Source: a virus. From it: a DNA stretch of 64,000 bases. A program made the translations under genes and the position numbers. The notes under the pieces are model-generated. The model was not told the origin of the DNA, searched no databases, and saw only the letters and a list, made by a program, of their open reading frames with translations. The stretch lies in the IMG/VR virus record IMGVR_UViG_3300033402_000312; one strand, 5' to 3'. Below, one piece after another: positions 14,578 through 32,239 of the stretch (its first letter is position 1; each line of letters opens with the position of its first letter).

Positions 14578-15240
14578 ATGTTGTCAAGGACTAAAAAGGC
14601 GGCTGCGCTGTACTTCGAGCCGCTCAAGAAACTGCTGGCTGCTGTGCGGTCGGTGGTGCAGTTCCGTGTGAAGCGCTGGCATGTCGCCATGCGCGGGTGG
14701 AATGAGAAAGACGTTCGCGTCCTGATCTGCCTTGAAGACTCGATCTGGTACTGGGTCGTGTTGGAGTGGCTGTTCTGGGACGTCCAGACGCATGTCTGCC
14801 ACTGCATGGACTGCGTCAAGCTCCCGAAGTTCGTCCGCAACTGGAAGCGGCACTGGGACAAGGACGATCCCGAGTACTTCGCCACGTGGGAGGACTGGTA
14901 CGGCGACAGCTTTCACTCGATCTGGCACTGCCATGTGTGCGATCCCTTGCTTCAGTGGGTGTGGAGGCACAAGGATTTCCACAAGGCGTGGCCGCAGTGG
15001 GAACTGACGTTCGACGAAGCCCGCAAGACCTTCGCGCACGACCCGAAAATCTACGAGTGGGCTGAGAAGGAACTTGCGGAGCACAAGCAGTACGACGCCG
15101 AGAAGCTCGACGAGATTCGCAAGTCCTACAAGGCTGGCGGCCTGACCCGCGAGCAGGCGCTTGAAAAGCTGGGGTGGCACTTCGGGGGCGAGAATCTTGA
15201 AATTCTGCTTGACGAAAAAGAAGGACTAACAGTATCTTAA
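14578..15240 (+). CDS. hypothetical Trp/His/Cys-rich protein
   Basis: RBS AAGGAG 8 nt upstream; 220-aa ORF. Confidence 0.6.
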   Translation: MLSRTKKAAALYFEPLKKLLAAVRSVVQFRVKRWHVAMRGWNEKDVRVLICLEDSIWYWVVLEWLFWDVQTHVCHCMDCVKLPKFVRNWKRHWDKDDPEYFATWEDWYGDSFHSIWHCHVCDPLLQWVWRHKDFHKAWPQWELTFDEARKTFAHDPKIYEWAEKELAEHKQYDAEKLDEIRKSYKAGGLTREQALEKLGWHFGGENLEILLDEKEGLTVS

Positions 15241-15485
15241 TAGATGCACGTGGGACCCCGACCGACCTGACGAGGCAGCTTGTACGAGAGGTGGCGGGCA
15301 GTGCGCATCAACCTGGCACCGAGGCTCATAACGACTGAACAGCCGGAGCCGATGACAACGGGGTCCCACAACTTTTTCAGTCCCAGCCCTGCCTGACTGG
15401 GTGGTTGCGGGGGAGATGTTCCAGCCCATACGATGACTGGATGGCGGGGACGCAATGTTTGGCGGAGACGACTAAATTTTTCTGA

Positions 15486-15562
15486 TGCGGGGTGGAGCAG
15501 TCTGGTAGCTCGCAACGCTCATAACGTTGAGGTCGCCGGTTCAAATCCGGCCCCCGCTTCCA
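15486..15562 (+). tRNA. initiator-like tRNA-Met(CAT)
   Basis: Body nearly identical to E. coli tRNA-fMet (TGGAGCAGTCTGGTAGCTC, GGTCGCCGGTTCAAATCCGGCCCCCGC); unpaired 1:72 (T/T); CCA encoded; anticodon stem CAACG/CGTTG lacks the three G:C pairs. Confidence 0.75.
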
Positions 15563-15578
15563 GTTTATAGCCCGAGGG

Positions 15579-15818
15579 GTGGAACCTGAGACGGCAATTC
15601 CGCCCCTCCATTCTTTGAAAGGGCGCATGGGACAGACTTCGTCAAGCTCCAAAACGACAGCCACCGAACTGGCGAAGATGCTGATGGAGCACCCCGACTG
15701 GGAAGTCGAGGTCGAGGGTTACGCTTGGTTCGGGATGAACGAGCCTACGAAGTATACGTCGTCGCCCGAAGTGGACGAACTGCCCGAGCAGAAAAAGTTT
15801 CTCATCTACACAGTCTGA
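15579..15818 (+). CDS. hypothetical small protein (start may be 15627)
   Basis: 79-aa ORF directly after tRNA; acidic C-terminal half. Confidence 0.35.
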   Translation: MEPETAIPPLHSLKGRMGQTSSSSKTTATELAKMLMEHPDWEVEVEGYAWFGMNEPTKYTSSPEVDELPEQKKFLIYTV

Positions 15819-16090
15819 GTTCAACGCCCGTAGGCTTTGAGCCGAGATGCAGAAGGGCTGGCAGAGCCATACGACCTGATGCAGGACGGGAAAGCTCTGC
15901 AAGTAATTTGTGAAGAGATTCTGCAAATGAGGCGGCATCTCATTTGCAGGGGAGCCGGAGCAAATGCGCGAGGACATGCCTCACCAGCGCGTTCAGACGG
16001 ACACCGGACCGGGTGAAAGCCGTGGCAAGACTGTTTGAGTCTCCGGCGCAAGCTTCGCAGCGGTGTAATGTACGGATACTTCACATAAAC

Positions 16091-16119
16091 CAGTAGGTTG
16101 TGGGTTCGAATCCCACCTT
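16091..16119 (+). tRNA. tRNA 3' fragment (variable loop + T arm + acceptor 3' strand)
   Basis: GGTTGTGGGTTCGAATCCCACCTTCCGAG has perfect T arm GTGGG-TTCGAAT-CCCAC but no matching 5' half upstream. Confidence 0.4.
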
Positions 16120-16669
16120 CCGAGAAATCGGATGTAGCTCAACTGGAAGAGCAACAGGTCAGAAAAATTCCGTGCAGCTTTTTGTTCCCTGCGATTTCAA
16201 GACTGATTTTTTCGTGCCGAGCCGCCCGTGCGTGGCCACGCTAAGGCGCGGGAGAATCCATAAGGTGGCTGTTGTACAGGCCCGCTCGTACGAAGGGCGA
16301 TCTTTCTAGCTAGAGGTTCGTACGAGCGAATACATTTCGGTGCTTCAAGCCGTTCTCGGACGTAAACCGAGTGGAGCGGAACCTCGCACGTTTCCCGGTT
16401 CGTCAAAAACCGGGTGGATTTCTATGACGAAAGCGACCGCGTGCAGCCTCGTTGCTTATGCCTCGGCGTTCGCTGCTGGCGCGACTTTCTGGTACGGAAC
16501 CTTGGCGTCGAAGCCCAAGTTCTATTATCTCGCGGTAGCGTTCTTCTTGTTTGCCGCGAAGTTCCGTTTTCTGGCTTCCGCGCATCTAAAAGGAAAGATT
16601 CAATGAAGCTGACGTCCCAACTCGACTCGTTTAGCGGCCCCTCCGGGGGCCTGCGGTAACGTGTGTCAA

Positions 16670-16745
16670 GGGGACGTAGCTGATGCGGTCTTAGCGCCTG
16701 CCTGAAGAGCAGGAGATGTTGGTTCGACTCCGACCGTCCCCGCCA
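16670..16745 (+). tRNA. tRNA-Phe(GAA)
   Basis: GGGGACG...CGTCCCC+G+CCA; anticodon arm CCTGC-CTGAAGA-GCAGG; T arm GTTGG-TTCGACT-CCGAC. Confidence 0.8.
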
Positions 16746-16786: not shown

Positions 16787-19700
16787 ATGGACGAACTTAC
16801 CCCGCAGCAAGAGCAGCCAGCCAAGAAGACGCGAAAGCCCAGAGCGCCTAAGGCCGAGAAGCCGAAGAAGGAAAAGCCTGCCCGCGACATCCGAAGTGTG
16901 TTCCGCGAAAAGCTGGCAAGCATCACCGTCGAGGGCATCAAGAAGCCTTGGATGTCCGAGAAGGTGTTCCGCCTCATCACGACGGCAGAGGAGCTTGAAG
17001 CTTGGGTAGACAGCATCCTGGCCGACGCGTCCCGGCACCACGCATGGGCGGGCATCACCTGTCCCGTCATTGCGGTTGACACCGAGACGACCAGCCTCGA
17101 CACGCGCATCTTCACCGACATCAAGCAGGACGGGAACGGCAATTGGTATCTGGTCTACGAGGTCAAGACCGAGATCGCCGGGGTCTGCCTCTCCGCTGAC
17201 GGCATCGAAGGACTTTACATCCCGATCAACCACGAGAGGGGCGTGAACGTTCCCCGCGCCGACGCGGCGCGGATTCTCCAGAGGCTCTTCGACCGATCTC
17301 ACCTGGTCTTCTACAACGGCAAATTCGACCGCGAGGTCATGAAGATCACGCTGGGCATAAGCTTCCGTGGCTACCCGCACTTCGAGGACGTGCAGGTCTT
17401 GAACTACATCAACGACCCGAAGGCCGATTTCGGCGACAAGGCGAGCTTCCAAGGCGGTGCCGAGGGGCTGAAGAAGCTTTCCGAGAGGGTGCTGGGCATC
17501 GAGCAGATCGAGATCGACGAGATCGCGAAAGTCCGCTGCCAAGTCTGGAACCCCGTCACGCAGAAGAACACGCTGAAGCAGAAAGTCGTCCCGTTCACCT
17601 GGGTTCCCCCTGACATCGCGCTGTGGTACGCGGCGGCGGACGCGATCTGCACGTGGCTCCTGTGGGACCGCATGAAGGGGCTTGCCCGCAGCCGGAAGCT
17701 CGTCCACCGCATCGACCACGAGCTTGTCGATTCGCTCGCGTACGTCGAGCGCCAGCGCTTCCTCGTGGACGTTGACCGCCAGCGCCGCACCGCCCGCTGG
17801 CACGGGCGCACGCTCGCGGCGCTGAAGGACAAGCTCTCGAAGCTCGCTGAGGCGGCGGGCTGGACGCAGGAATTCAACCCCGGCTCGACGAAGCAGCTTG
17901 GCGAGCTTCTGTTCAAGGTCATGGGCTTCAAGCCGTACCGCACGACCGATGGCGGCGCGGCGTCCACCGACAAGGAGACCCTGACGGAGCTTGCGAAAGA
18001 TCACCCGGACAACGAGTTCATCGTTGCCCTGAAGGATTTCCGCGAGCTTGCGGCGCTTCACCCGGACAACCTGCGCTACGATCCGAAAGACAACTCCGCG
18101 AGGATATACCTCAAGCAGAACGTCGTCGCCGGGGGACGCCTATCCGGGGGCGGCGGGGAGTTCGAGAAGGACGGCGGGTTGGAATGGAACCCGCAGGGCG
18201 TCAAGAAGCTGGAGAAGGAGGACTTCTGGCGCGTGTACGGCAACGTGCTGGAGCCGGACTCCGTGCCGGAGTATGAGGTTGAGGAGCACGACGAGAGCGA
18301 GCTTCACCCGTCCTGCTTTGTCGAGGAGAAGGGCGTCAAGACTAAGGCCCCCGGCATCATCAAGAACCATATCGGTCTCTACCAAGACTACGCGATCTGC
18401 CTTGTGCCGGGCTGCAAGACCTGCAAGGACAAGTTCGGAATCCTGATCGAGGACACGTCGCTCGACGCGAACCAAGTTATCAACCTGCGCGTGCTCATGA
18501 CCGCGCCTCCGGGATGGACGTTCTTCAGCATCGACTACTCGAACATCGAGATGCGTGCGATGGCCAACCTGTCCGGCGAGCCGAAGTATGTCCAGGAGTT
18601 CCTGACGGGAAGCGGCGACTTCCACGACCTGACCGCGAAGAACATCTTCCCGCAGTACAGCGACCCGACGTCGAAGGACTACAAGTCCAAGACCTTGCGC
18701 GGCATCGCCAAGATCATCAACTTCGCCATCAACTACGGCGGCACGGCGCACGCCATCTACAGGAACCTCATCAAGAAAGACCCGACCATGACCATGAAAA
18801 AGGCGGAGGAGCTTGTCGAGAAGTACTGGGCGGGCGTGCCGAAGTTCAAGGAGTGGTGCGACGTCAAGCAGGCGCGGGCACGCAACGATTTCGTCACCGA
18901 AACAGCGACTGGGCGCGTGCTCGACTTCAAGTCGGCGATGGAGCAGGAGCACATCCGCGTGCCAACTTCCCAGGAGAAGGCGCTCCTGAGAAAGTACTAC
19001 GACTACAAGCGCGAAGCCAAGGCTGCGCTGGAGCGGGGCGACGAGGACGTTGCCGCATCGTACAAGAACGCGGCGGACAGGCTGTGGAAGAACCCGGAAA
19101 CGGGCGTCCGCAACGCCATTGAGTACAACCAGTTCATCAGCAAGGCGCAGCGCGTCGCAGTCAACACCCCGGTGCAGGGGCTGTGCGGCGACTTCATGCG
19201 CATCTCGATCAACCGCATCAAGAAGTGGGTCGAGAAGGACCCGGACGTCCAAAAAGTGTTCCGCTTCCACTGCTCCGTCCACGACGAGATCGACGTGTCG
19301 ATCAAGAACGAGTATGTGCCGTTCGTCCTGCCGCGCCTCACGCGCTGGATGAAGCTGCGCAAGTACCACGAGAGCATGCAGTGGCCTGTTCCCATCGAAT
19401 GCGACGCAGAGTACGGTCGTAGCTGGGACGTGGACTGGAGCATCAACAAGGTGGGATACACGTACATCGACGGCCTTGAGACCTACGCGCCGGATGCGTT
19501 CAGCACGACCACGGTCAACAACCTGTACAAATTCATTGCCTCCGGCGACGAGGAGAAACGCGAGAAGGCGAAGGGCTACCTCCAGAACGTCCTCCACCCC
19601 CGCGCTTTCGAATCCGCGAAACTTCTGTTCAAGGCGCAGGACAGGAAGGAAATCCAGCAGCAGCTTGTCGCCGTGCTCCAGCTTCACGAGTACTGGACTA

Positions 19701-19987
19701 TCGACCATGTGCCGGACGGCGACGAGAACGACAAGACCCTTGAGACGCTCGCGCAGTACGAGCAGCGCGTGGGCATCAGCGCACGCGACCCGCTCTGCCC
19801 GGAGTTCGGTTACATGGGGCCGATCCCGCTCGACAACCCGAACGTGATCCGCCCGGAGCCTAACCTGCTCGAAGGCGGTGAGGTTACGCCCACGGAAACC
19901 TCGGAACCGGAAACAGAAGAAACTTTTGAGGTTGAAGACCCCCCGCAGACCTCTCAGGAATTCCTGACGCATAAAGTAGGAGCTTAG
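16787..19987 (+). CDS. polA: DNA polymerase, family A (3'-5' exonuclease + polymerase)
   Basis: Exo motifs DTETTSLD, YNGKFD, YAAADA; Pol motif A IDYSNIEMRAMANL, motif B RGIAKIINFAINYGG, motif C SVHDEIDV; 1066 aa with insertions. Confidence 0.95.
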   Translation: MDELTPQQEQPAKKTRKPRAPKAEKPKKEKPARDIRSVFREKLASITVEGIKKPWMSEKVFRLITTAEELEAWVDSILADASRHHAWAGITCPVIAVDTETTSLDTRIFTDIKQDGNGNWYLVYEVKTEIAGVCLSADGIEGLYIPINHERGVNVPRADAARILQRLFDRSHLVFYNGKFDREVMKITLGISFRGYPHFEDVQVLNYINDPKADFGDKASFQGGAEGLKKLSERVLGIEQIEIDEIAKVRCQVWNPVTQKNTLKQKVVPFTWVPPDIALWYAAADAICTWLLWDRMKGLARSRKLVHRIDHELVDSLAYVERQRFLVDVDRQRRTARWHGRTLAALKDKLSKLAEAAGWTQEFNPGSTKQLGELLFKVMGFKPYRTTDGGAASTDKETLTELAKDHPDNEFIVALKDFRELAALHPDNLRYDPKDNSARIYLKQNVVAGGRLSGGGGEFEKDGGLEWNPQGVKKLEKEDFWRVYGNVLEPDSVPEYEVEEHDESELHPSCFVEEKGVKTKAPGIIKNHIGLYQDYAICLVPGCKTCKDKFGILIEDTSLDANQVINLRVLMTAPPGWTFFSIDYSNIEMRAMANLSGEPKYVQEFLTGSGDFHDLTAKNIFPQYSDPTSKDYKSKTLRGIAKIINFAINYGGTAHAIYRNLIKKDPTMTMKKAEELVEKYWAGVPKFKEWCDVKQARARNDFVTETATGRVLDFKSAMEQEHIRVPTSQEKALLRKYYDYKREAKAALERGDEDVAASYKNAADRLWKNPETGVRNAIEYNQFISKAQRVAVNTPVQGLCGDFMRISINRIKKWVEKDPDVQKVFRFHCSVHDEIDVSIKNEYVPFVLPRLTRWMKLRKYHESMQWPVPIECDAEYGRSWDVDWSINKVGYTYIDGLETYAPDAFSTTTVNNLYKFIASGDEEKREKAKGYLQNVLHPRAFESAKLLFKAQDRKEIQQQLVAVLQLHEYWTIDHVPDGDENDKTLETLAQYEQRVGISARDPLCPEFGYMGPIPLDNPNVIRPEPNLLEGGEVTPTETSEPETEETFEVEDPPQTSQEFLTHKVGA

Positions 19988-20827: not shown

Positions 20828-23461
20828 ATGGCAGACGAGAAGAAGCCCCCTAAGCGTGCCCGCAACGGCAGCGTTTCGGTCGGCAAGACCACTGAAATCC
20901 GCAAGGTAGCCACGGATGCTGGCGGCAGGGAATACGCCTCGGCGGGCCGCTATACCACGTTCGACGGGAAGAACATCCGCGACGACGTGGCTTACCGCAA
21001 CAAGCTCCGCTCCCTGCGCGGGCTTGCCGACAGCTTCCTCGGGGGCGACGAGACCTTCCAGTCCGGCAAGATGGCTGCCGGGATATTCGGCGACGGCGGT
21101 CTCGGGTTCGCGGACATCGCCGACTCCAACAACATCGGATACTACTCGTACGAATTCCCCGTCGATGCGCTTGAACTCCCCGCCTCGCGTGCCGAGGAAC
21201 TCCGGTTCTACCGGCTTGCTTACGACCGCGACCCAATCGTAGGTCGCGCCATCGACCTGCACACCGAGCTTCCCCTGTCCAAGATGGAGCTTAGCAAACC
21301 CAAGTCTTCCAGTGAGGAGTACGCCGACTTCGTCTTTGACGAGTATCAGCGCGTCGTGCAGAACACGAAGCTGTTCCAAGTCCTGATCGATGCCGTCCGC
21401 GAGTACTGGACAATCGGCGAGACTTTCATCTTTGTCGAGAAGCCCGCCGACATCGAGCCTTGCAAGGAAGCCCTGAAGCAGATAGAGAAAGGCAAGAAGG
21501 GGGATGCGTCTGAGCCGGGCAAGGAGTCTGAATTCAATACCCCGCTGGGCGGCACGTCCGACCGGGTCATCGAATACCTCGAACCGGCGAAGCGCTCCTC
21601 GTGGGCGAAGCGGCGCGGAACCGAGATCGACGCGATGAAGGAGGCTGGGCTGAATTTCGACTTCGACGAGGACGTTGGCAAGGTCGCGGCGGACATCAAG
21701 GAGAAGCGTGCCTCGCTGAACGCGAAAACGCGCAAGTACGCGAAGATTGCGGGCGTGCCTGCGAAGAAGCTGGCAAAGCTCATCATCGTTGCGGACTCGG
21801 GCACTTACGGCTGGGGCGATGCCATCAAGAATGCGGCGCTCGCGAAGGCGGCGCTCGCGAAGCTCATCGGCCGCATCGACGTTGACGATTCGCTCAACGC
21901 CCCGATACAGCAGACCGCAGGGTTCGAAAAGACCGCGCAGCCGCCCGGAGTCACTGACCCCGGCGCTGCCGCTCCCGCTGCCCCCGCTGGTGCTGCCGGT
22001 GCTGCCGGTGCCGGTGCTGGTGCTCCTCCAGGTGCTGAGGGTGTCGCGCCGGGCGAACCGGGCGCTGAAGGCGTTGCTGCTCCGGGCGAAGGCGCTCCCT
22101 TGGGCGATGCCGGGCTTGGCGACATCGAGGGCGGCGGCGGTGCTGGCATGCCTATGGGCGGAGGGGGAGGCGCGGGCATCCCGGCAGACATGGCAGGCGA
22201 TGCGCAAAACGCCATCGCGGCGGGCGCGTCCATCACTGCGCAGCGCGAACTGATGGAGCTAAAGCATTTGCTCAGCCTGCTCGAAAAGAAGAAGGAACTG
22301 CTCGAAGAGTTGAAGGAAATCCGCGAGAAAAAGCGGGAGGAGCTTGAGCTTTTCTCGCATGTGACCAACAAGGACTACGACGGCCCGACCAAGATTCAAA
22401 TCCTGCCCCCGGAGCAGATGGAAATCGCAAACGAAGGGCAGATGGAGGACGGCCCGACGATCTACTACAAGCCGCCCGAGGAGCAGAAGCAGGCTTACCT
22501 CGAAGACCCGGACGTGCCAGCCGAGGTCAAGGAAAAAATCCAGACAGAAGGCAAGATTCCGCTCAACCAAGACCCGATGAAGGGCAGCTACGTGATCCAC
22601 CTCGCCCGCAAGAAGAGCGGCTACGAGCTTCACGGGCGCTCGATACTCCAGCGCTGCATCCGCACGGTCATCTACCGCGAGAAGCTGCGGCAGGTGCAGT
22701 CCACGCTGGCATCGCGCAACATGACGCCGAAGACCATGGTTATCGCACCGGGCATCCCGACATCCGAGGTCATGGCGCTCCGGGCCCACATCGACGAGGC
22801 AAAGGCAGACCCGGACTACTCCGTCGTGCTCAACTATGAGGCACGGTGGGACGAGATCGGCTCCGAAGGACGCCTGCTTGTGCTCGACGGCGAGTACCAG
22901 CATACCAATTCCGACCTTGCAATCGGCCTCGGTCTGTCCCCTGAAATCCTGATCGGCGAGGGTCTTTACTCAGGAAACAAAATACAACTGCAAATCCTTG
23001 AGGTTTCGTATGTGCAGTTCAGGGATTTGCTCACGGGCGTCATAGAGGACAAATTCTTCAAGCCGATTGCAATGGAACGCGGCTTCTACGAGATCGACAA
23101 ATACGGCCGCCCGCGCTGGATTTTCCCGAAAGTCTCGTTTAGCCGCATGGCCCTGCGCGACAGCGGAGACCTTTACGATATGCTCTTTAATTTGTACAGT
23201 AAAGGGAGTCTCCCGGTTGACATCATCCTTGAGTTCCTTAACGTCGATCCTGAGGACGCCAAGCGCAAGCTGGAGGACAACCTCTTCACGGTGCAGGACA
23301 GCAAATTTAATGAAATGCTTTCAAATATCTACGGAAGCGTCGGCGAGTGGATGATGGCGAACACCGATCTCGGGAAGCGTCTTGTGAAGGGTCTCACTTT
23401 GAACGAAGTCGATCACGCTGAGGACTCTGAAGGTCCAGAGGGTTCAGGCGAGGGTGTATAA
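20828..23461 (+). CDS. putative portal/head structural protein with Ala/Gly/Pro low-complexity insertion
   Basis: 877-aa ORF; N-terminal third has portal-like segments (ELRFYRLAYDRDPIVGRAIDLHTELPLSK); residues ~365-460 low complexity. Confidence 0.45.
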   Translation: MADEKKPPKRARNGSVSVGKTTEIRKVATDAGGREYASAGRYTTFDGKNIRDDVAYRNKLRSLRGLADSFLGGDETFQSGKMAAGIFGDGGLGFADIADSNNIGYYSYEFPVDALELPASRAEELRFYRLAYDRDPIVGRAIDLHTELPLSKMELSKPKSSSEEYADFVFDEYQRVVQNTKLFQVLIDAVREYWTIGETFIFVEKPADIEPCKEALKQIEKGKKGDASEPGKESEFNTPLGGTSDRVIEYLEPAKRSSWAKRRGTEIDAMKEAGLNFDFDEDVGKVAADIKEKRASLNAKTRKYAKIAGVPAKKLAKLIIVADSGTYGWGDAIKNAALAKAALAKLIGRIDVDDSLNAPIQQTAGFEKTAQPPGVTDPGAAAPAAPAGAAGAAGAGAGAPPGAEGVAPGEPGAEGVAAPGEGAPLGDAGLGDIEGGGGAGMPMGGGGGAGIPADMAGDAQNAIAAGASITAQRELMELKHLLSLLEKKKELLEELKEIREKKREELELFSHVTNKDYDGPTKIQILPPEQMEIANEGQMEDGPTIYYKPPEEQKQAYLEDPDVPAEVKEKIQTEGKIPLNQDPMKGSYVIHLARKKSGYELHGRSILQRCIRTVIYREKLRQVQSTLASRNMTPKTMVIAPGIPTSEVMALRAHIDEAKADPDYSVVLNYEARWDEIGSEGRLLVLDGEYQHTNSDLAIGLGLSPEILIGEGLYSGNKIQLQILEVSYVQFRDLLTGVIEDKFFKPIAMERGFYEIDKYGRPRWIFPKVSFSRMALRDSGDLYDMLFNLYSKGSLPVDIILEFLNVDPEDAKRKLEDNLFTVQDSKFNEMLSNIYGSVGEWMMANTDLGKRLVKGLTLNEVDHAEDSEGPEGSGEGV

Positions 23462-23468
23462 TAGCTAG

Positions 23469-24038
23469 ATGAGAAATCACACTCTTAAAGGTCAACGTTT
23501 TGGCAAGCTACTTGTTCTACGACGTGCTAGTCGAAACAAATTCGGGAAAATTCTTTGGTTATGCCAATGTGACTGCGGTCGTCGCAAGCGCGTTCTAGGC
23601 GCAAATTTATGGATAAAGGGTGGCAAGCCACATCAAGGCAGTTGTGGCTGTGAGCAGGGACTACGACCAACTGGACGGGTGCCAGCTTACAAATATCTTA
23701 TGACGGACTACCGAGGTTCCGCCAAAGCTAACAATCGTTCTTTTGAACTTACCGATGAAGTTTTTTCCAAACTGGTGACTTCCCCTTGCGACTACTGTGG
23801 TCGATTGCCAGAACGAACATTGCCGCCAAGCAGAACACGCAAGTATGCAAACTATGCCACATTCCGCTGGAATGGCATCGACCGGATTGACAGCGCCAAG
23901 GGCTACGTCGAGGACAACGTGGTGCCGTGCTGCAAGCCCTGCAACGAACTTAAGTCCAACAAAAGCCGCGACAAGTTCCTGCGGCTAGTCGAGACGATCT
24001 ACCGCTGGCAGAACCGCCAGCGTGCGGCTTCGGCTTAG
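23469..24038 (+). CDS. HNH homing endonuclease
   Basis: CDYCGRLP...WNGIDRIDSAKGYVEDNVVPCCKPCNELKSNKS; N-terminal CxxC pairs; low-GC island. Confidence 0.8.
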   Translation: MRNHTLKGQRFGKLLVLRRASRNKFGKILWLCQCDCGRRKRVLGANLWIKGGKPHQGSCGCEQGLRPTGRVPAYKYLMTDYRGSAKANNRSFELTDEVFSKLVTSPCDYCGRLPERTLPPSRTRKYANYATFRWNGIDRIDSAKGYVEDNVVPCCKPCNELKSNKSRDKFLRLVETIYRWQNRQRAASA

Positions 24039-24355
24039 TAATCCTTTCCTGTTCCCACATTCCGAAGGAAAAAAGCATCGCTTTCGATCTCGTCCCGAAG
24101 CTCTTTCAGCAGCGCCTCGTCCGGCTGCCGCATGACGAACAAGCCGCCGACCTCTTTGCCTGGCGCACGCTGGATTGAGACCGCGTATCCGGTAACCTTG
24201 CCGTCCTTCTTTGTGGGTCCGATGTTGAGCGCCAGCATGCCCAGTAGGGATTCAGGCGGGTTGAACGACAGCATCCACGGTTCGTCAAGCACCTTGAACC
24301 CGGAGTCGCGGAAGCCTAGCTTTTCAAGTCCCGCGACGAATTCTTCGATTTGCAT
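24035..24355 (-). CDS. hypothetical protein
   Basis: 106-aa minus-strand ORF; the 25-nt repeat lies ~70 nt upstream. Confidence 0.5.
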   Translation of the reverse strand: MQIEEFVAGLEKLGFRDSGFKVLDEPWMLSFNPPESLLGMLALNIGPTKKDGKVTGYAVSIQRAPGKEVGGLFVMRQPDEALLKELRDEIESDAFFLRNVGTGKDY

Positions 24356-24425
24356 GACCTTTCCTCTCCTTTCCAGTCAAATCACCTCTCGTCCAGTCCA
24401 TTCCTATCCCCTCGACTCCAGCCGC

Positions 24426-24450
24426 CAACCCCTTGAAAAAGCTGATTTTG
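24426..24450. repeat. 25-nt direct repeat copy 1 (CAACCCCTTGAAAAAGCTGATTTTG)
   Basis: Identical 25-mer also at 25767-25791; lies upstream (minus sense) of gene 24035..24355. Confidence 0.8.
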
Positions 24451-24458
24451 AGTCAAGC

Positions 24459-25712
24459 TTAGAGAACGCCGGTCTTGAAGCGGACAAGCATAATTTTGCT
24501 CGTGCCAAGCTTTCCGAAGGCAGCCCGTAGCGGTCCGCAGAAGTGGTTCACAGCGATTCCTGCCAGCAGCAAGGACATCCAGTAGATGGGATAGCGGTAG
24601 CGCACGTCAAATTGCACCACGTAATACACCAATGGATACAGAGTCAACGCTGTGCCTAGCAGCAAGGCTGCCCTCCTGTTGTCCCTGTAGAGCAGCCACA
24701 AGCCAAAAACCGATAGGGCAGTGACCAGCCACGGGCAGTAGCGTAGGACGCCCTCCGGTCGGGTAAGCGGGTCGGGTGTCGGGAACCAGAACAGCCTTAT
24801 TCTTTTGAGTGTGAGAAGCGAAAATCGGGAGGGATTTGCTTCAATCCACGCGACGGCTAGCTTCTTTCTGCTCTGGAAATAGTTGTATTCCCCCGCCTGA
24901 GCCAAATCCCTTGCGATGCGGGCATTCAAATTCGGGTGGTATTTCATGTGGCTGCCGTTGGTCATGTTCTCGTTGAAGGAAGGGGCCGCGTCAGCGTTGT
25001 TGGAAACGTACAGTTCCAACCCGAATCCGTCGCGTATGAAAATAAATTCGCCGAATTGGCGGTAATTGCGCACCAACCACGGGGTTATCACCAGTGCGGC
25101 AAGCCCGCCGACGAGAACAATTCGGCGCACCATTTGAGGATGCCCATACAGCCAAATGAATGACCAAGGCAGAAGCAACAGCGAGAAGGCTGGCTGGGTG
25201 AAAATAAGCAGCCCCAATGAAAGCCCCAGAAACACCGCCCGCTTGGTTGTGGGCTTGTAAGTCAATTGTGCAAATACCGCAACGCTGAGAAGGGTCGCTA
25301 GAAACACTTCCCAGTTCGTGTCTACATGCAGGTGCAGGCCCACGACGCCAAGGAAGGCTGCGACGATTCCCGGATACAGCCCAAAGCCCATCTTGTGCGA
25401 TGTCAGGGGCAGCAGCCCAAGGGCTACAGCTATGAACAGGAAATTCACGAGCCACATTATCCACAAGGTTGAGGACGTATCCCCGCAAAGCCGGATGACA
25501 GACGCATACAAAGCCGGGTACACGGGGGATACAAACGCGGTTGGACGACCGGACGGAGCGGAAACGGTGCCGTTGTGCAGCAACGACATCACCCCATCCA
25601 TTACTTCGCCGCCGCGATAGGACAAATTGGGGAGCGGAGAGCCTGGGTTAACCACCAACAGAATGAAGCACGCCAGAATGACGGTGATCGTTACCTTGGT
25701 CGTTTGTCCCAT
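24459..25712 (-). CDS. polytopic membrane protein, GT-C-type glycosyltransferase-like
   Basis: 417 aa, ~10 predicted TM segments, acidic motif in first extracytoplasmic loop; size and topology like GT87/GT39-type lipid-linked sugar transferases. Confidence 0.55.
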   Translation of the reverse strand: MGQTTKVTITVILACFILLVVNPGSPLPNLSYRGGEVMDGVMSLLHNGTVSAPSGRPTAFVSPVYPALYASVIRLCGDTSSTLWIMWLVNFLFIAVALGLLPLTSHKMGFGLYPGIVAAFLGVVGLHLHVDTNWEVFLATLLSVAVFAQLTYKPTTKRAVFLGLSLGLLIFTQPAFSLLLLPWSFIWLYGHPQMVRRIVLVGGLAALVITPWLVRNYRQFGEFIFIRDGFGLELYVSNNADAAPSFNENMTNGSHMKYHPNLNARIARDLAQAGEYNYFQSRKKLAVAWIEANPSRFSLLTLKRIRLFWFPTPDPLTRPEGVLRYCPWLVTALSVFGLWLLYRDNRRAALLLGTALTLYPLVYYVVQFDVRYRYPIYWMSLLLAGIAVNHFCGPLRAAFGKLGTSKIMLVRFKTGVL

Positions 25713-25766
25713 AGTTCTCCCCTACAGCCAAAGTATACAGCCGCCGCCCCCGTTTTGGTTACCCGT

Positions 25767-25791
25767 CAACCCCTTGAAAAAGCTGATTTTG
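25767..25791. repeat. 25-nt direct repeat copy 2
   Basis: Identical to 24426-24450; 55-79 nt upstream (minus sense) of the membrane protein start. Confidence 0.8.
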
Positions 25792-25855
25792 GGGTATTTA
25801 GTAGCGGGCTTCCGATTTTCCGGCTTTTAAGCTCTAATTTGAGGGTACAAAACTC

Positions 25856-26587
25856 ATGGCAATAAACAACGGCACCAAGATCACGAGCATCATGGTATCC
25901 GCCGCCAACGGCGACACTTACGGCGACGCGGAGCGTCAGCTTTTCCGTGGCATCCAAACGCTTGTCATGCCCAACGTCATCAGCATGGCGCTGAGCACGC
26001 CCCCGCTCTCCCCGACTTTCGGTCAGGCTTACGTAGTGGCATCATCCCCGAGCGGCGCATGGGCTGGCCAAGCGAACAACATCACGGCATGGGCTATCGA
26101 TTCGCAGAGCGGTCCGCCGGTCACCACCGGCGCGTGGGAATTCTACGCCCCGCAGGCTGGCTGGGTGGTCTTTGACCAAACCACCAGCGCCTTCTGGGCA
26201 TGGAGCGGCTCGGCATGGGTTCTGTACAAGTCGGCACCCAAATCCCCTTCGGGAATCGTCACGGCAACCTCGACGACCACCCTCAGCCCCCTCTCGAACA
26301 GCAGCTTCCGCATCAACCTCAACAACGTCGCCACCGTCAGCCTTGTCATCAACAACGGCGGATACGACGGTCAGGAGATCACAGTCGAGTTTGTGCAGGG
26401 CGGTACGGTCGGATCGGCGGTGACGTTCGCCGCCAACATTCATGGCGCGGGCTTTCTCGTCACGGGAAGCAGCGCCTTTTCTGCGGCTCCCAGCACTGCC
26501 TTGAACTCCGTCTCCGTCCAACGCTACACATGGGACGCTGGCAACACGATTTGGTACGCGCTATCAACCGGCGTATCGGGTCAATAA
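25856..26587 (+). CDS. structural (tail fiber-like) protein
   Basis: 243 aa, Thr/Ser/Gly/Ala-rich with aromatic residues; precedes the giant protein gene. Confidence 0.5.
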   Translation: MAINNGTKITSIMVSAANGDTYGDAERQLFRGIQTLVMPNVISMALSTPPLSPTFGQAYVVASSPSGAWAGQANNITAWAIDSQSGPPVTTGAWEFYAPQAGWVVFDQTTSAFWAWSGSAWVLYKSAPKSPSGIVTATSTTTLSPLSNSSFRINLNNVATVSLVINNGGYDGQEITVEFVQGGTVGSAVTFAANIHGAGFLVTGSSAFSAAPSTALNSVSVQRYTWDAGNTIWYALSTGVSGQ

Positions 26588-26680: not shown

Positions 26681-29600
26681 TTGATCACCGCATTGGACAC
26701 TGTCTCGTGGTCATCCGAACTGGTTACAGGCAATGCCGAGTTCATTGAAGTCACATCGCCCGGCTCGCCGCCCGGCTCCGGCCCGAGCATCTTTGTCATT
26801 TCCAATGTCCGCAACGACAGCGCCGGGTTCGGCTTGGACTTCGGAGCCACCTTCGGCAGCCAGTTCAGCTTCGAGGTTTTGCAATCGGCCCCGTTTCCCC
26901 CGGCTCCCGGCCCCGGCTCCGGTTTCAACGTCACCGCATCGTACACTTTCCCGCAGCCGAACTACACTTTTGACCCGGTAGCCGCCTACGACGCGACGGG
27001 CGTCAACCCGGTGATCCACATCATCGGCACCCGCAACACGCCCACGGGGAAGATTTCGTCGAGCAGCCAATACAGCGACGTCATCAAGTTCACATACGAC
27101 ACGGTCGCGCAAACCCTGGCGGGGCCGATTGTCCTGAGTTCCGGCACGCGCATCCGCAGTCCCTACGACATCGCTGTTCTCCCGAACGGAAACCAGATCG
27201 TGGCCATGTCGCTCGCGGAGCCGATGATCCAGGGCGCTAACCCGGTTGTCTTCGTCTCGGTAGAAAGCAATGTCGCAACGCTCATCCTCAACGGGGACAT
27301 CACCCCGTTCGTCCCCGGTCAATGGGTGCTGCTGAACGGGTTCTCCAACGCCACGTTCCTGAACGGGCAAGTTGTGCGGGTCACCTCGGCGGCCGCAGGC
27401 GAGTTCAGTTTCGCCTTCCAGCTTCCGGTGCCCGGCTCGCCGCCCGGCAGCTACAACGAGCCGGAGCCTGTCGGCCCAGTCACGGCTTACGCCCAGCCAA
27501 TCGGCGACAGCGTGCTTGCCTTGGAACTTGACGTCGGCAGCGCCGTTGCGCAAGGGTATGGCTACAACTTCGGCGAGAGCTTCGGCAGCAACGAGGTGGT
27601 GCCAGCCTCCGCGACCATCATCGACAGTTCGCCTGCGCGTTCCGGGAACGCCTTCGACGGCATCTCGCTCGTGGGCAACGGGGGCATCGTCGAGCTTTAC
27701 TACCAAGCGCACCCGAAGGTTGTCACGTTCCAAGACCAGGTTTTCACGATCAACTTCACGAGCTTCGGGGCTACGAGTCCGACGCCCGCTTGGTCGCTGC
27801 CCGCAGTCCCGATCACGGCATTCACGGCGCGGTACTCCGACAGCAGGCTCACGGTGCTCGCCGATGCGGGCAACAACCGCTACCTTTCCCAGACTTACTG
27901 GAGCCAGTCCAACCACCCCTACGGCATTCTCGGCAATGCCCTCCTTGGATACAAGCCGTCCGGCGACCCTTGGGTTTTCTCCTCGGCCCTTGGGACATTC
28001 ATGGGCGGTTCCATTGTCCAAAGCACCCTCGCGGTCGCTCAAGGCGGCATGGTCAACCTCGTGTACCTGCTCCAGCCCTTCGACCAGGTCGCCAATCCTC
28101 CGTCCACGGTTGCGGCTGCGTACCCGCTGCGAGTCGCCACGGTGACCACAAGCCCCCCGACTCTCGACCTCACGAACGTGCCGGGCTTCTACAACAACGC
28201 GAACTTCACGTGGCTGCGCGGCACCAAGTCTGTGGTTGACAACGAGTCGATTTGGGCTGTCGTGGGTGAGCGCGAAGCCTTGACGACCGTAACGGGGGAA
28301 GCTCAAACAGTCCCGGCTCTTCCCGCGCCATCCATTGTCCGGGTTGACAACTACTCCGGGTACTTTGAGAATGTCATGGTAACGTACGCGCTGACCGGCG
28401 TCCCGCTGGTGGAGGTTGCGACCTCCCCCGCGCAAGGGCAATACGCCGTCGAGCCTTCGACCGGGGAGTATTCGTTCAACAGGGCGGACGCGGGGTCGCC
28501 GGTTGCGATCAGCTACAGCTACGTCTCTGGCATCCAGCCAGTCTACGCGAGCGCGTTCATCGTCCCCCCGGTCGCGGCTCTTGCGCCCTCGCCCGCGACA
28601 GTGTATCGCAGCGGCACATTCTATTCGACCGACACTGCAACCATCACCAAGATTAGCCTCAGCGAAAGCAGCCTCACGGTCACTTGCAACAACGACTTCC
28701 AAGCGGGGGAGCAGGTAGCCATGTACGGCATCGGCACCGTGGCGTTCCTGAACGGCATCACGCTGACTGTCGCGAGCGCGACGCCAGCCCAGTTCACCGC
28801 CTATTTCTCCCCGCAGCTTGCGGCAACAATCAAGCTGCTGAGCGGACTGAGCTTCGGCTTCGGCTTCAATTTCGGCAGCAACTTCAGCGTCTACAGCAAG
28901 CCGGACACGGGCGTCGCCGCCAACCTCAGAGCCGGGGCGCTCACGTTTTCCGCTGCGGGATCGACTGACGCCTCCGGCAATGCGTTGGAATTCTTCTGGT
29001 CGGAGAACGACCCAGACCTCGTGGATGTCACGCTCCAGACGAACAGCAGCCAAGCCACCCTCAACGTGGCAAGAAAAGCCGGGCCGACCTCGCGCAACTT
29101 CGATGTGGGCGTCGCGATTGTTGACCTGGAAGTAGACCTTGTCACCCAGATACACCCCGCCCTGCTGGTTTCGAACGCGACAGTCGTGGGGTTCGACACC
29201 ATCACGCTCGCTTTCGCGCCTCCGGGCGGCGCAGGCTTTGGCTCTGCGTTCGGCGCACACTTCGGCTTGCCGGTTCCGTCAGGCGCGGTTGTCCCCGTGG
29301 CGGGCGAGCAAGCTATGATGTACGGCATGGTGCTGACTGCGCCGCAAGCTCCGACGCTGGGTCAGGTGCCCGGAGGCTCGCTGCCAGCACAGAATAACCT
29401 GTCCGTGATCGTTACCTACGTGAATAACGCGGGCGAAACGGTCGGAAGCAGCAATTCCATCCTCAGCGTGGGCGCGAACAGCCTGCTGACCGTGAATTCT
29501 CCGGGCGGCAACGGCACGGCGACGGCGTACAACGTGTATGTCGGGACTCCGGGCAGCGAAACGCTGCAAACGCTGACGCCGCAGCCCCTCGGCTCGACGT

Positions 29601-32239
29601 TCATCGAACCGACCTCGGGGCTGATCGCGTCGTTTACGACGCCGCCCTTGACAAGCACGGCGTCGGAGGTGGTTCTCAACGATGAGGTGCTCACGCTCAC
29701 GAGCGTCACCCCGACCACAATGAACGCCCCTTTCACAACTGCCGGGACGTTCGGCATCGACTTCGGTCACAATTTCAACGGCAACTATTCGGCATCGCTC
29801 ACGGGCTTTGTTATCGCGCAATTCCAATTTGCCGTCGCCGACGTCACTGTGCCCCAGAACGTCGCGCCTGCCATCGTCTTCCCCGCCCCGCTGTGGAGCG
29901 CCGGAAATATGCTGGGCGTCGCAGCGGTCACTGCGACCTCGGTGCTGCCCGTCCCCGGCTCGCCTCCGACGTCGTCGAATGTGCTTACGGTTACGTGCGC
30001 GAACTCCTTCATCGCGGGCGAAACGGTGACCTTGAACGGCACGGTCGAAGCCTTCCTGAACGGGCAGCCCCTCACGGTCATCTCGGCATCCCCAACCCAG
30101 TTCACTGCGAATTTTGCCGCCGCTCCCTACACGAACGTAGCCGACACAGGCACGGCGACGCTGGAGCTTGCCCGCAACACGCAGATCACCATCACGCCGA
30201 CGCCGAACGCAGCCGACCCCACTACCCAATTCCCCGTCGTGTACACCGGAATCTACGACCCGGACGACACAGTCAGCTATCTGTGGACGCAGACGGGAGG
30301 CACTGCCGTCACGGTTGTCGGCGGCGACGGCAATCCGTCCTTCTCGTTCCTCACGAACGGCGTCAACGTCAATGGCGAAGCCTTGACATTCAGCCTGACC
30401 GCAAGCGACGGCGTCAATTCCCCGGTCACGTCGAGCTTCACCGTCAATGTCGCGGCGTACAATTTCGCAAGCACGAACGACACGAGGCAACTGTCGCGCT
30501 CCGTCTGGGGCCAAACGGCTACTGTCAGCAACGTGGTGGTTGCCTCGGGCGTCGCGACCATAACGGCAAACAACGGCTTCCTTGCGGGGGAGCCTGTCAG
30601 GTTTTCGAGCCTCGCGAATGCGACATTCCTAAACAATGTCGTCGGCTTCTTTGTCGCATCGGCCGACGCGTCCCAGTTCACGTTCTCAACCACGTTGCCG
30701 GACTACCCGTCCACAGCGGACAGCGGCACCGCCTACGCCACGATGCCGATCTCGCAGCGCAACCTGCCTCAGGTCTGGTTGCCGCTGGACATTTCCATCC
30801 TCTTCAGCGACCTGGCCAGCGTAAAGCGCGTGTCCGTCACTGACGGCAGCGACCGCTACATCGTGATCTCGCCCTACAGCGTGCTCGTGTACGGCGTGTT
30901 TCCGTCCGCCAACCCGGTGGCGGTGCTCCTGCGCAAGCTCCTGACGCCGAATCGCACGGTCATACTCGACGCCGTTCATACCGAGCAGGACTACACGCTG
31001 GTGCTGGACGCCAGCGGCAACATCTTCCGCTACTCGACCGCGCCGCTGATTGACACGGACAACCCGGACACCGCGCTGATCCTGTCGGACATCACGTCCA
31101 TCAGTTTCACAGACACCGACCTTGACGGCGACGTGAAGATCATGACGACGCAAAGCTTCGCCAACAACCGCATCGTGGTGCTCTCGGGCGAGCAGGGGGC
31201 GGTGCTGCTGCAACTCAACACCACGACGCTTGCGGTGCAGGGGGTGCTCGAATTCCTGACCGCCGACAGCCTTCTTTACGGAGCGGACGGAATTCAGTTT
31301 GTGCGCTGGGTCAACATGGACAACCTGCATACCGGGCGGGTGCTCCTTGGTTCCGTGGTGTACAACTCTGCGAATGTCACGCAAGTCGCCATCGCCAACA
31401 ACGCCTTGACGCTCACGGGTGCCAACGATTTCGTCGTCGGCGACGAGATTGTGCTGTCGGGCATGCAGAACGCGACGTTCCTCAACGGCGTCGCCGTCAA
31501 AGCGGTCAGCGCCACGGCTGCCCAGTTCACGGCGTCGTTTGAGTATCCGGGAAACTACGGCCCCGTTGCCGAAGCCACAGGCTTCGCCGAGGCGCAGACT
31601 TCCGGCACGACCTACGAGACGCTTGTGGACTTGTCTCAGGGGCAAATCATCGGCACATGGGACAAGAGCAAGCTCCGCAACCAGTTCGTGCAGACGGGCG
31701 AAATCCTGTTCACGCCGGACACGACATATTCCGGCGTCCCGACCCCGCCAGTGCTGTTGCAGCCGTCTTCCGTTGTCCAGAACGGGAAGACCTATGTCAC
31801 CCTTGCCTGGCAGCAGGAACGCCCAGACCTCATCACCTCGTATATCGTCGGCTTCGCCATCGGAACCCGAGTTTTCGGCGTGGTGCCGGTTTCTGCCCCG
31901 TACACGTTCCAAATCCCCGTCCTATTCACCTTCACGGCGGACGAGGGGGTCGTGGACACAACCACCAGCACGCCGCTTGTCTCCGTGTCGGGCACCCCGC
32001 AGGCGGGGCAGTACACAGTCGCCCCGACCGGGCTGTACACGTTCAACGCAGCGCAGGCGGGGCATGCCATAGCCGTTTCCATCCGCCAATCCTTCAACGC
32101 CTTGCAGAATGTGGGAAGCGGCGCTACGCAGTCGATCACCGTGCTTCTCGCCGCTGGGCAGACGTACTTCTTCGAGGTTCAGGCCTTCGGTCTCGACGGT
32201 CGAAGCGGACAGTCTAATATCCAATCCATCAGTATTTAG
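26681..32239 (+). CDS. giant structural protein (1852 aa) with five dispersed ~40-aa repeat modules
   Basis: TTG start; repeat F..G(E/Q).V.L.G..NATFLNG....V.SA...QFT..F occurs 5 times; C-terminal FN3-like region. Confidence 0.7.
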   Translation: MITALDTVSWSSELVTGNAEFIEVTSPGSPPGSGPSIFVISNVRNDSAGFGLDFGATFGSQFSFEVLQSAPFPPAPGPGSGFNVTASYTFPQPNYTFDPVAAYDATGVNPVIHIIGTRNTPTGKISSSSQYSDVIKFTYDTVAQTLAGPIVLSSGTRIRSPYDIAVLPNGNQIVAMSLAEPMIQGANPVVFVSVESNVATLILNGDITPFVPGQWVLLNGFSNATFLNGQVVRVTSAAAGEFSFAFQLPVPGSPPGSYNEPEPVGPVTAYAQPIGDSVLALELDVGSAVAQGYGYNFGESFGSNEVVPASATIIDSSPARSGNAFDGISLVGNGGIVELYYQAHPKVVTFQDQVFTINFTSFGATSPTPAWSLPAVPITAFTARYSDSRLTVLADAGNNRYLSQTYWSQSNHPYGILGNALLGYKPSGDPWVFSSALGTFMGGSIVQSTLAVAQGGMVNLVYLLQPFDQVANPPSTVAAAYPLRVATVTTSPPTLDLTNVPGFYNNANFTWLRGTKSVVDNESIWAVVGEREALTTVTGEAQTVPALPAPSIVRVDNYSGYFENVMVTYALTGVPLVEVATSPAQGQYAVEPSTGEYSFNRADAGSPVAISYSYVSGIQPVYASAFIVPPVAALAPSPATVYRSGTFYSTDTATITKISLSESSLTVTCNNDFQAGEQVAMYGIGTVAFLNGITLTVASATPAQFTAYFSPQLAATIKLLSGLSFGFGFNFGSNFSVYSKPDTGVAANLRAGALTFSAAGSTDASGNALEFFWSENDPDLVDVTLQTNSSQATLNVARKAGPTSRNFDVGVAIVDLEVDLVTQIHPALLVSNATVVGFDTITLAFAPPGGAGFGSAFGAHFGLPVPSGAVVPVAGEQAMMYGMVLTAPQAPTLGQVPGGSLPAQNNLSVIVTYVNNAGETVGSSNSILSVGANSLLTVNSPGGNGTATAYNVYVGTPGSETLQTLTPQPLGSTFIEPTSGLIASFTTPPLTSTASEVVLNDEVLTLTSVTPTTMNAPFTTAGTFGIDFGHNFNGNYSASLTGFVIAQFQFAVADVTVPQNVAPAIVFPAPLWSAGNMLGVAAVTATSVLPVPGSPPTSSNVLTVTCANSFIAGETVTLNGTVEAFLNGQPLTVISASPTQFTANFAAAPYTNVADTGTATLELARNTQITITPTPNAADPTTQFPVVYTGIYDPDDTVSYLWTQTGGTAVTVVGGDGNPSFSFLTNGVNVNGEALTFSLTASDGVNSPVTSSFTVNVAAYNFASTNDTRQLSRSVWGQTATVSNVVVASGVATITANNGFLAGEPVRFSSLANATFLNNVVGFFVASADASQFTFSTTLPDYPSTADSGTAYATMPISQRNLPQVWLPLDISILFSDLASVKRVSVTDGSDRYIVISPYSVLVYGVFPSANPVAVLLRKLLTPNRTVILDAVHTEQDYTLVLDASGNIFRYSTAPLIDTDNPDTALILSDITSISFTDTDLDGDVKIMTTQSFANNRIVVLSGEQGAVLLQLNTTTLAVQGVLEFLTADSLLYGADGIQFVRWVNMDNLHTGRVLLGSVVYNSANVTQVAIANNALTLTGANDFVVGDEIVLSGMQNATFLNGVAVKAVSATAAQFTASFEYPGNYGPVAEATGFAEAQTSGTTYETLVDLSQGQIIGTWDKSKLRNQFVQTGEILFTPDTTYSGVPTPPVLLQPSSVVQNGKTYVTLAWQQERPDLITSYIVGFAIGTRVFGVVPVSAPYTFQIPVLFTFTADEGVVDTTTSTPLVSVSGTPQAGQYTVAPTGLYTFNAAQAGHAIAVSIRQSFNALQNVGSGATQSITVLLAAGQTYFFEVQAFGLDGRSGQSNIQSISI

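Follow-up and report, generated by a model that had tools for sequence, protein, structure and literature searches.

In lambdoid phages, the moron concept of Hendrix and Juhala describes an extra gene inserted where a relative has two adjoining genes, and lambda bor is a moron transcribed against its surrounding late operon. Phages also carry free-standing HNH homing endonucleases, such as the T4 mob genes and the relatives of I-HmuI. T4-type phages contain promoter-early stem-loops (PeSLs), mobile regulatory cassettes (Arbiol et al. 2010, PMC2839356; Comeau et al. 2014, PMC4122927). PeSLs extend from the stop codon of the upstream gene to the next Shine-Dalgarno sequence and start codon, with an AT-rich stretch ahead of the −35 box, and they flank ORFans in plastic regions where they mediate insertions, deletions, mini-circles and gene shuffling (PMC2839356). 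Shigella and Salmonella phages carry GtrABC, the O-antigen glucosylation (serotype-conversion) cassettes, whose unit comprises the gtrA flippase, the gtrB GT2 polyprenyl-phosphate glycosyltransferase and a type-specific membrane glycosyltransferase (PMC11194591). Here we describe a locus that shares features with each of these systems. It lies in a 64,000-nt stretch of viral DNA (IMG/VR record IMGVR_UViG_3300033402_000312), the whole of which is called the window below and numbered from its first letter. In this window a 25-nt element occurs twice and brackets mem417, a minus-strand gene for a polytopic membrane protein of 417 aa with a predicted GT-C glycosyltransferase fold.

Both copies of the element lie, together with mem417, a second minus-strand gene encoding a protein of 106 aa (p106) and an HNH endonuclease gene, in a 2,355-bp insertion that the closest related phage lacks. 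The reading that we favour, to which we assign a probability of roughly 0.55, is that the element is a duplicated module, marking either an upstream region or a cassette boundary, and that recruitment of the GT-C gene beside p106 gave rise to the second copy.

A 25-nt repeat brackets the membrane protein gene

The exact 25-mer CAACCCCTTGAAAAAGCTGATTTTG has two + strand copies in the window, at 24426-24450 (copy 1) and 25767-25791 (copy 2), as reported in a preliminary description made from the letters alone. It had no matches in 100 dinucleotide-preserving shuffles, and 0 are expected by chance. Gap-free extension lengthens the repeat to 29 nt (24422-24450 and 25763-25791) with one C/T mismatch (CCG[C/T]CAACCCC...), and the sequence beyond these 29 nt is unrelated between the two copies. 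Copy 1 is found in the 103-nt spacer from the mem417 stop codon to the p106 start and begins 8 nt past that stop codon. Copy 2 is found in the 143-nt divergent spacer that separates mem417 from a DUF2793 gene, and 25 nt lie between it and the right end of the insertion. Together they bracket mem417 with a start-to-start period of 1,341 bp. The preliminary description mentions neither this bracketing nor the insertion. In gene sense, copy 2 precedes the mem417 start by 54-55 nt and copy 1 precedes the p106 start by 70-71 nt, so that the reported placement of each copy upstream of one of the two genes was borne out (55 nt for mem417, 71 nt for p106).

The anatomy of the repeat, read in gene sense, consists of the stop codon of the upstream gene, 8 nt, the A/T-rich stretch AAAATCAGCTTTTTCAA, GGGG and the −35-like hexamer TTGRCG. 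The hexamer is TTGGCG in copy 1 and TTGACG in copy 2, and in both cases it ends the 29-nt repeat. It is followed by an unrelated leader of 50-70 nt, a Shine-Dalgarno sequence and the start codon. The preliminary description had asked whether the element might be part of a longer duplicated region with no conserved regulatory position. The first part of this concern falls away, as the repeat stops at 29 nt between unrelated flanks, and the second part holds to the extent that the spacing to the nearest −10-like hexamers varies.

By length, the 25-mer ranks second among the exact repeats of the 64-kb window. The longer exact repeat and most others fall within paralogous genes or tRNAs, and the 25-mer is the longest exact repeat outside paralogous-gene or tRNA duplications. 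The search for more copies that had been proposed was run on the 64-kb window and returned these two copies only: with up to 7 mismatches there were no others, and a lone match with 8 mismatches is at chance level. Sub-motifs of 13 nt showed no enrichment elsewhere in the window. In 1.4 Mb of related loci searched with ≤6 mismatches the repeat was found only in the same phage, and the exact 25-mer had no match in IMG/VR. A metagenome scan with the 22-mer core gave a single match (L030). It falls within a coding sequence, on an unrelated contig of low GC, and we attribute it to chance. The exact identity over 25 nt, together with the sharp edges, argues for a copying event rather than for two sites made alike by selection alone. 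From the orientation of the copies and their location ahead of each gene, the piece that was copied seems to have been the upstream control region of a gene.

Both repeat copies can also be read in one + frame (24419-24453 and 25760-25794), where they encode [S/T]RQPLEKADF[E/G]; in this frame the one position that differs within the 29 nt (CGC/CGT) leaves the amino acid unchanged. The chance match L030 encodes PLEKADF as well, within a real gene. We considered the repeat as a relic of coding sequence and regard this as probably a coincidence, the + strand open reading frames (ORFs) being antisense to genes with homologues. An 8-mer, CAGCCGCC, occurs gene-proximal to both copies at an offset of about 22 nt; it is borderline (chance about 0.06) and was not relied on.

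The repeat lies in an insertion between the portal and tail-fibre-like genes

The closest relative of the phage is L007, whose portal and polymerase proteins are 85% and 87% identical to those of the window. In L007 the portal stop codon TAA is directly followed by TTTTCCGGCTTTCAAGCCCTAATTTGAGGG...ATG of the DUF2793 gene, with 39 nt between the two genes. Aligning both window junctions to this L007 junction gave the bounds of the insertion: 23462-25816 (2,355 bp), from the portal stop codon to the conserved leader of the DUF2793 gene, with the window resuming at TTTTCCGGCTTTTAAGCTC... (25817). This ancestral leader (TTTTCCGGCTTTTAAGCTCTAATTTGAGGG..., 25817-25855, + strand) is conserved with L007 and marks the right boundary. 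The left flank is the portal gene (20828-23461, + strand; PHROG portal, E 2.3e-24), and the right flank is the DUF2793 tail-fibre-like gene (25856-26587, + strand), which matches Pfam DUF2793 (E 1.5e-15) and PHROG tail-fibre families. The inserted sequence, which contains the HNH endonuclease gene, p106, mem417 and both repeat copies, thus sits as a moron does, between genes that are adjacent in a related phage.

The contents of the portal/tail-fibre junction differ among relatives. It is empty in L007, holds an ORF of 60 aa in L008 (12619-12801) that includes a duplicated portal fragment (ALRAHVEEAKNDPDYAVV), and holds an HNH gene alone in L021 and L026. In L011 an HNH gene is followed downstream by a + strand ORF of 170 aa (13027-13539). 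A tblastn search with the window proteins found p106 and mem417 in none of 20 related phage loci. The base composition of the insertion is also distinct. GC at third codon positions is 0.52 for the HNH gene, 0.69 for p106 and 0.68 for mem417, as compared to 0.76-0.86 for the flanking core genes, and overall GC is 0.540 in the insertion versus 0.583 in the whole window. All three inserted genes have a foreign composition. These comparisons show 23462-25816 to be an accessory insertion, at what appears to be a hot spot for recombination that lies between the portal gene and the tail-fibre genes. Eight metagenome contigs with the island were obtained by searching for mem417, p106 and the HNH protein. 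They are 99.8-100% identical over the covered part, and two of them end inside mem417.

The HNH endonuclease gene (23469-24038, + strand, 189 aa) starts 8 nt past the portal stop codon. Its product matches the PHROG endonuclease (endonuclease VII) and HNH families with E values of 1.7e-14 to 2e-10, and Pfam HNH_5 weakly (E 0.27). The gene converges on p106 with a 3' overlap of 4 nt (24035-24038), and the insertion is therefore tightly packed. Homologues with 40-44% identity occupy the portal junction in L011, L017, L021 and L026, others lie at different positions in L008, L022 and L012, and the portal junction of L007, L008, L012, L014, L016 and L018 has no HNH gene. Such sporadic presence and position is the pattern expected for a free-standing homing endonuclease, and on these grounds the gene probably encodes one. 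Metagenome gene callers shorten the HNH gene to 112 aa (start 23700); in favour of the 189-aa ORF are its PHROG matches, which cover residues 3-67, and a homologue of full length in L011.

On the opposite strand, p106 (24035-24355, − strand) encodes a soluble protein of a small family, with distant homologues (P0051-P0072) at 25-45% identity. Its AlphaFold2 model (pLDDT 79) has an alpha-beta-alpha fold with no significant match in the PDB, and no match was found in Pfam, PHROG, NCBIfam or PADLOC (defence systems). The homologue in L031 adjoins a phage integrase and a Mom gene, and that in L032 has LigD and ligase genes nearby. According to independent metagenome gene calls, p106 and mem417 are the only reverse-strand genes across 14.5-35.7 kb of the window, in agreement with our ORFs and with the earlier observation that these two genes stand alone in a + strand block.

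The setting of the repeat in this insertion raises the possibility that it is a functionless scar of the recombination or repair that put the GT-C gene upstream of p106, likened to a long target-site duplication or to template-switch repair at a break near the HNH gene. Its exact identity, abrupt ends and unrelated flanks would be explained, as would the precise bracketing of one gene, the adjoining endonuclease gene in an insertion hot spot and the lack of a detectable promoter or RNA structure. We nevertheless consider a scar improbable. To our knowledge 25-29 bp far exceeds the target duplications made by transposases, and no integrase or transposase is present. The anatomy of the repeat (stop codon, AT-rich stretch, −35-like hexamer, Shine-Dalgarno sequence, start codon) looks regulatory, and the event is undatable with one genotype.

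mem417 is predicted to have a GT-C fold

In a Kyte-Doolittle scan, mem417 (24459-25712, − strand) was the only strongly polytopic protein in the window. It had no family match in Pfam (E ≤ 1), PHROG or PADLOC, and only a weak match to the LIC_10190 family in NCBIfam (20.6 bits versus a cut-off of 100). The protein itself scores below the gathering threshold of PF13231 (PMT_2), and a sequence-profile search against the PDB gave no match. We found 48 homologues, the more distant of which carry PF13231 or are named GT39 or ArnT-like. PF13231 is matched by 8/38 aligned family members, the best at 39 bits versus a cut-off of 26.1, and alignment of mem417 with P0038 (NCBI name GT39) gave 29% identity over 401 aa (E 7e-34). 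Through this transitive homology, mem417 can be placed as a divergent branch of the PMT_2/GT39-like families.

An AlphaFold2 model built from the family alignment reached a pLDDT of 90.9 and a pTM of 0.90, with about 11 long helices across residues 2-416, in line with the 8-13 or so transmembrane helices of GT-C proteins. All 26 of the 26 best Foldseek matches of this model in the PDB are GT-C enzymes (probability 0.92-1.00, TM-score normalised to the query 0.30-0.57), including AglB, PglB, ArnT, STT3, ALG9, Pmt4, DPY19, AftA/B and EmbB. The best were AglB 7e9s (E 2.3e-4), PglB 5ogl and ArnT 5f15. By its modelled fold, mem417 is a member of the GT-C superfamily.

The catalytic acids of GT-C enzymes sit on the periplasmic side, in the first loop, as seen in structures of ArnT, PglB and PMT. 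Four residues of mem417 (E36, R215, R227 and E275) are invariant in the 38 aligned homologues, and Asp131 is nearly invariant. In the model, Glu36 lies between transmembrane helix 1 (residues 2-21) and transmembrane helix 2 (80-107), at the beginning of a helix formed by residues 36-47. The short loops SHKMG, YKPTTKR and GHPQMVRR are positively charged, and we read them as fitting a topology with the N terminus inside, which would place Glu36 and Asp131 in the periplasm. Glu36 is a candidate catalytic residue, placed by its loop position rather than by a residue-by-residue superposition on the catalytic Asp of ArnT or PglB. The earlier assignment of mem417 as a GT-C-like polytopic membrane protein is upheld by the fold, the PF13231 links and the invariance of Glu36, and the acidic residue whose lack would have spoken against it is conserved in all 38 homologues.

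mem417 is host-derived and may modify the cell surface

In GTDB the mem417 family comprises 80 chromosomal loci with 28-42% identity, almost all from Terriglobia, Acidiferrales and Bryobacterales metagenome-assembled genomes of bog, fen and soil origin. At 69-75% identity, the closest homologue is on a bacterial contig and adjoins a cysteine-synthase-like gene, as read by eye. Homologues of mem417 were found neither in 50,697 INPHARED phage genomes nor in IMG/VR, and viral matches to its fold were weak only. Since the family is chromosomal in Acidobacteriota and no phage homologue was found, mem417 is host-derived from this phylum, which in turn points to an acidobacterial host. This large soil phage, of at least 115 kb, thus probably infects Acidobacteriota.

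The closest bacterial homologues of mem417 are themselves AT-rich islands (L005, 1310-2578; L006, 176-1465), with GC of about 0.40-0.50 in contigs of about 0.60. This suggests that the GT-C gene is horizontally mobile in bacteria too. In L005 the gene caller shortened the homologous ORF to 309 aa. Clustering of the ORFs around the 80 bacterial loci was uninformative as to conserved neighbours, the best being a large membrane protein present at 14/80.

We examined the window for partners of mem417. Neither a gtrA flippase, which would be a small protein with 4 transmembrane helices, nor a gtrB GT2 partner was found among the window ORFs tested (transmembrane scan; Pfam search of 10 candidates). 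The minus-strand genes of the island are p106 and mem417 alone, with no three-gene gtrABC unit. With no flippase or GT2 partner among these ORFs, mem417 would depend on the host for its donor. From the GT-C fold, the periplasmic acidic residue and the phage setting, it is reasonable to infer a role in modifying the cell surface. This part of the preliminary description therefore stands. The island is not a classical serotype-conversion cassette, as the gtrA and gtrB partners are missing.

The repeat as a possible regulatory element

A consensus scan of 23400-26400 found no sigma-70-type promoter on either strand, a result that applies to consensus rules from which the promoter rules of the host may differ. 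The nearest −10-like hexamers are TAGGAA, 16 nt from the −35-like hexamer of copy 1, and TATACT, 26 nt from that of copy 2; the spacing is not conserved, and the regions downstream of the two copies are unrelated. The best promoter candidates found by hand in the island match 7-9 of 12 consensus positions. RNA folds of both copies on both strands gave z-scores of −1.4 to +0.9, which are not significant, and no stem-loop was seen; Rfam searches of the repeat returned sub-threshold chance matches only. As for terminators, the island has only a weak terminator-like site inside p106 on the wrong strand, and none at the repeats.

Near-consensus sigma-70-type promoters do occur elsewhere in the phage. 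They are TTGACA-17-TATCAT at 3389-3417 (+ strand) and TTGACA-17-TACTAT with an extended TG at 11099-11127 (+ strand). The two share the 16-mer TCTTGACAGTTTTCTG, and each lies ahead of a tRNA cluster. They are probably the early promoters of the phage.

Several of these results weigh against the reading of the repeat as a copied control region or cassette boundary: the lack of a promoter at the repeat in a phage that has near-consensus promoters at other sites, the variable spacing to the −10-like hexamers, the unrelated downstream regions and the lack of RNA structure. To them can be added that the repeat has two copies only, rather than forming a cassette family as PeSLs do, that the eight island contigs, as far as they extend, include none that keeps one repeat and lacks the GT-C gene, and that the closest bacterial mem417 homologues have neither the 25-mer nor flanking repeats. 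Likewise, gtrA, gtrB and GT2 partners are missing among the tested window ORFs.

The preliminary description had proposed that the element is a shared promoter or operator, and one could hold that the 25-mer is purely that, kept identical by selection because both minus-strand genes answer to one regulator, or to RNA polymerase with an activator, and with a duplication unrelated to gene mobility. Each gene has one copy ahead of it, 54 nt from the start codon for mem417 and 70 nt for p106, and both copies are oriented alike. With TATACT (25737-25732) as the −10 hexamer of mem417, the 25-mer would occupy about −66 to −42, the zone of UP elements and class-I activators, and the 29-nt version ends in the −35-like TTGACG or TTGGCG. 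These points are opposed by the negative promoter scan and by the register of 16 versus 26 nt. The 25-mer also has no operator-type dyad symmetry, 25/25 identity with sharp edges is rarely needed by operators, and no further sites occur in the 64 kb or in related phages. With no sigma-70-like promoter, unequal spacing, no RNA structure and no wider regulon, the proposed promoter or operator activity is not supported, and as the full explanation of the repeat we consider it rather unlikely.

The element might instead act on the + strand, with TTGAAA as a −35 hexamer. Copy 2 (TTGAAA-17 nt-TTTAGT, 25774-25802) would then restart transcription of the DUF2793 and tail genes, and copy 1 would be an inert duplicate or a source of antisense RNA against mem417. 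The stretch AACCCCTTGAAA is similar to AACCTCTTGACA, the −35 context of the strong phage promoter at 11099, and copy 2 matches the consensus at 9/12 positions with 17-nt spacing (hand count). This promoter fails the scan, however, since its −10 hexamer lacks the A at position 2. In copy 1, no −10-like hexamer follows at 16-18 nt, which leaves such activity possible for copy 2 only. Moreover, L007 expresses the same downstream genes without the element, and no terminators were found in the island that would make re-initiation necessary. As the explanation of the element, a + strand promoter is very unlikely.

A more specific form of mobility is that the repeats define a self-contained 1,341-bp cassette, consisting of the leader, the GT-C gene and one repeat, that moves by recombination or as a mini-circle into the hot spot marked by the HNH gene. 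If so, PeSL-like shuffling, or duplication by endonuclease-linked repair, would take place in large Acidobacteria phages and capture host envelope-modification genes. We regard this as improbable.

Genomic context of the phage

The setting of mem417 is that of a phage genome, with a DNA polymerase A gene, a portal gene, tail-fibre-like genes and 16 tRNAs around it. The family-A DNA polymerase gene (16787-19987) precedes the portal gene, and a gene for a tail protein of 1,852 aa (26681-32239) follows the DUF2793 gene. Contigs of the same phage extend to 115 kb, and relatives in IMG/VR lie on contigs of 170-463 kb. Samples with the phage include the peat samples 3300034091, 3300033405 and SRR9711196. 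Among the ORFs annotated we noticed no integrase, with no search aimed at one.

The 16 tRNA genes (5 Leu, 4 Pro, 3 Met and 1 each of Tyr, Ser, Trp and Phe) lie at 3579-16745, interspersed with small ORFs, an arrangement typical of large or jumbo phages. In the portal protein, residues ~378-508 form a Gly/Ala/Pro-rich low-complexity insert that cannot be aligned between relatives, flanked by N- and C-terminal parts with 50-94% identity among them. A motif with TFLNG as its conserved core recurs several times inside the 1,852-aa tail protein, in several copies as NATFLNG and with repeats at the nucleotide level at 27333, 28722 and 31455. The protein also has FG-rich stretches, and its repeats are found in the homologues of relatives too. 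At 56129-57482 (− strand) two adjacent genes of 220 aa are tandem paralogues with a 683-nt period and 78% nucleotide identity, and a further internal duplication of 381 nt is present at 57827-58420. Both island proteins are also listed on a contig of 894,233 bp. This contig, which bears on the lifestyle of the phage, may reflect a misassembly, an integrated copy or a phage of very large size.

Proposed assembly and function of the island

The following sequence of events would account for the locus under the reading of a duplicated upstream or cassette-boundary module. The HNH gene would be a homing element that marks or created the hot spot, and p106 and mem417 would be acquired genes packed against it on the opposite strand. 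The 25-29-nt element would be a copied regulatory or cassette-boundary module, its second copy produced by the recombination that recruited the GT-C gene. As direct repeats, the two copies would enclose the GT-C gene in a unit of 1,341 bp, open to deletion or circularisation by homologous recombination. Both minus-strand genes are antisense to the late structural operon with no terminators between, and for this reason expression of p106 and mem417 probably precedes late transcription or takes place in a carrier state. Using a polyprenyl-phosphate-sugar donor of the host, mem417 may modify a glycan or protein of the envelope at the periplasmic face. Such a change could alter receptors, confer superinfection exclusion on the infected or carrier cell, or keep progeny from adsorbing to debris.

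Acidobacteriota are a dominant soil phylum whose phages are almost unstudied. In such a phage a host-derived GT-C enzyme would be an auxiliary envelope-modification gene and would offer a lead on phage receptors. The base-precise insertion, with a homing endonuclease gene alongside and repeat-bracketed cargo, is a clean example of how accessory genes enter structural operons. If the repeat is in fact a mobile regulatory cassette, modular shuffling of the PeSL type extends beyond T4-like phages.

Comparison with known systems

Like the free-standing HNH homing endonucleases of phages, the HNH gene directly follows the stop codon of a conserved gene and is sporadic among relatives; unlike them, it is coupled by a 4-nt convergent overlap to cargo on the opposite strand. 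The membrane protein resembles ArnT and PMT_2 proteins (PF13231; CAZy GT83, GT39) in its predicted fold, in the number and order of its transmembrane helices and in the invariant acid of the first periplasmic loop, and it is linked to them by sequence homology through intermediate family members. It differs from them in scoring under every Pfam threshold, in its short length (417 aa) and in having no large C-terminal periplasmic domain.

The nearest functional analogue of the island may be GtrABC. Both have a phage-borne polytopic non-Leloir glycosyltransferase working on the periplasmic side, as predicted for mem417, and the presumed gain in both is receptor modification or superinfection exclusion. 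GtrABC cassettes are carried by temperate phages and expressed as part of the prophage. The island is not a GtrABC member, because gtrA and gtrB are missing from it and mem417 belongs to an acidobacterial PMT_2-like family rather than to the GtrC families. The carrier differs as well, being a large tRNA-rich phage with no integrase seen among the annotated ORFs.

The repeat is PeSL-like in its position and in the role that it may have. It is a short repeated intergenic module that runs from the upstream stop codon, with an AT-rich stretch before a −35-like box, and stops short of the next Shine-Dalgarno sequence and start codon. It also flanks accessory or ORFan genes in a plastic region, and the enclosed gene could be deleted or circularised. 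The likeness fails in three defining features of PeSLs. The repeat has no consensus sigma-70 promoter, it has no stem-loop terminator, and it is present in 2 copies rather than about 50, with no indel or mini-circle observed among the eight contigs. It also occurs in another phage lineage and host phylum.

The island as a whole compares with the morons of lambdoid phages. Classical morons have an identifiable promoter and terminator, neither of which was detected here by consensus scans, and the island combines two such genes with a homing endonuclease gene. It shares with the lambdoid morons an atypical base composition, with some of them an orientation antisense to the late operon, and with many of them a function of the envelope or exclusion type, which is predicted here. 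In these respects the island follows an ordinary phage accessory pattern, that of a moron or auxiliary envelope-modification gene.

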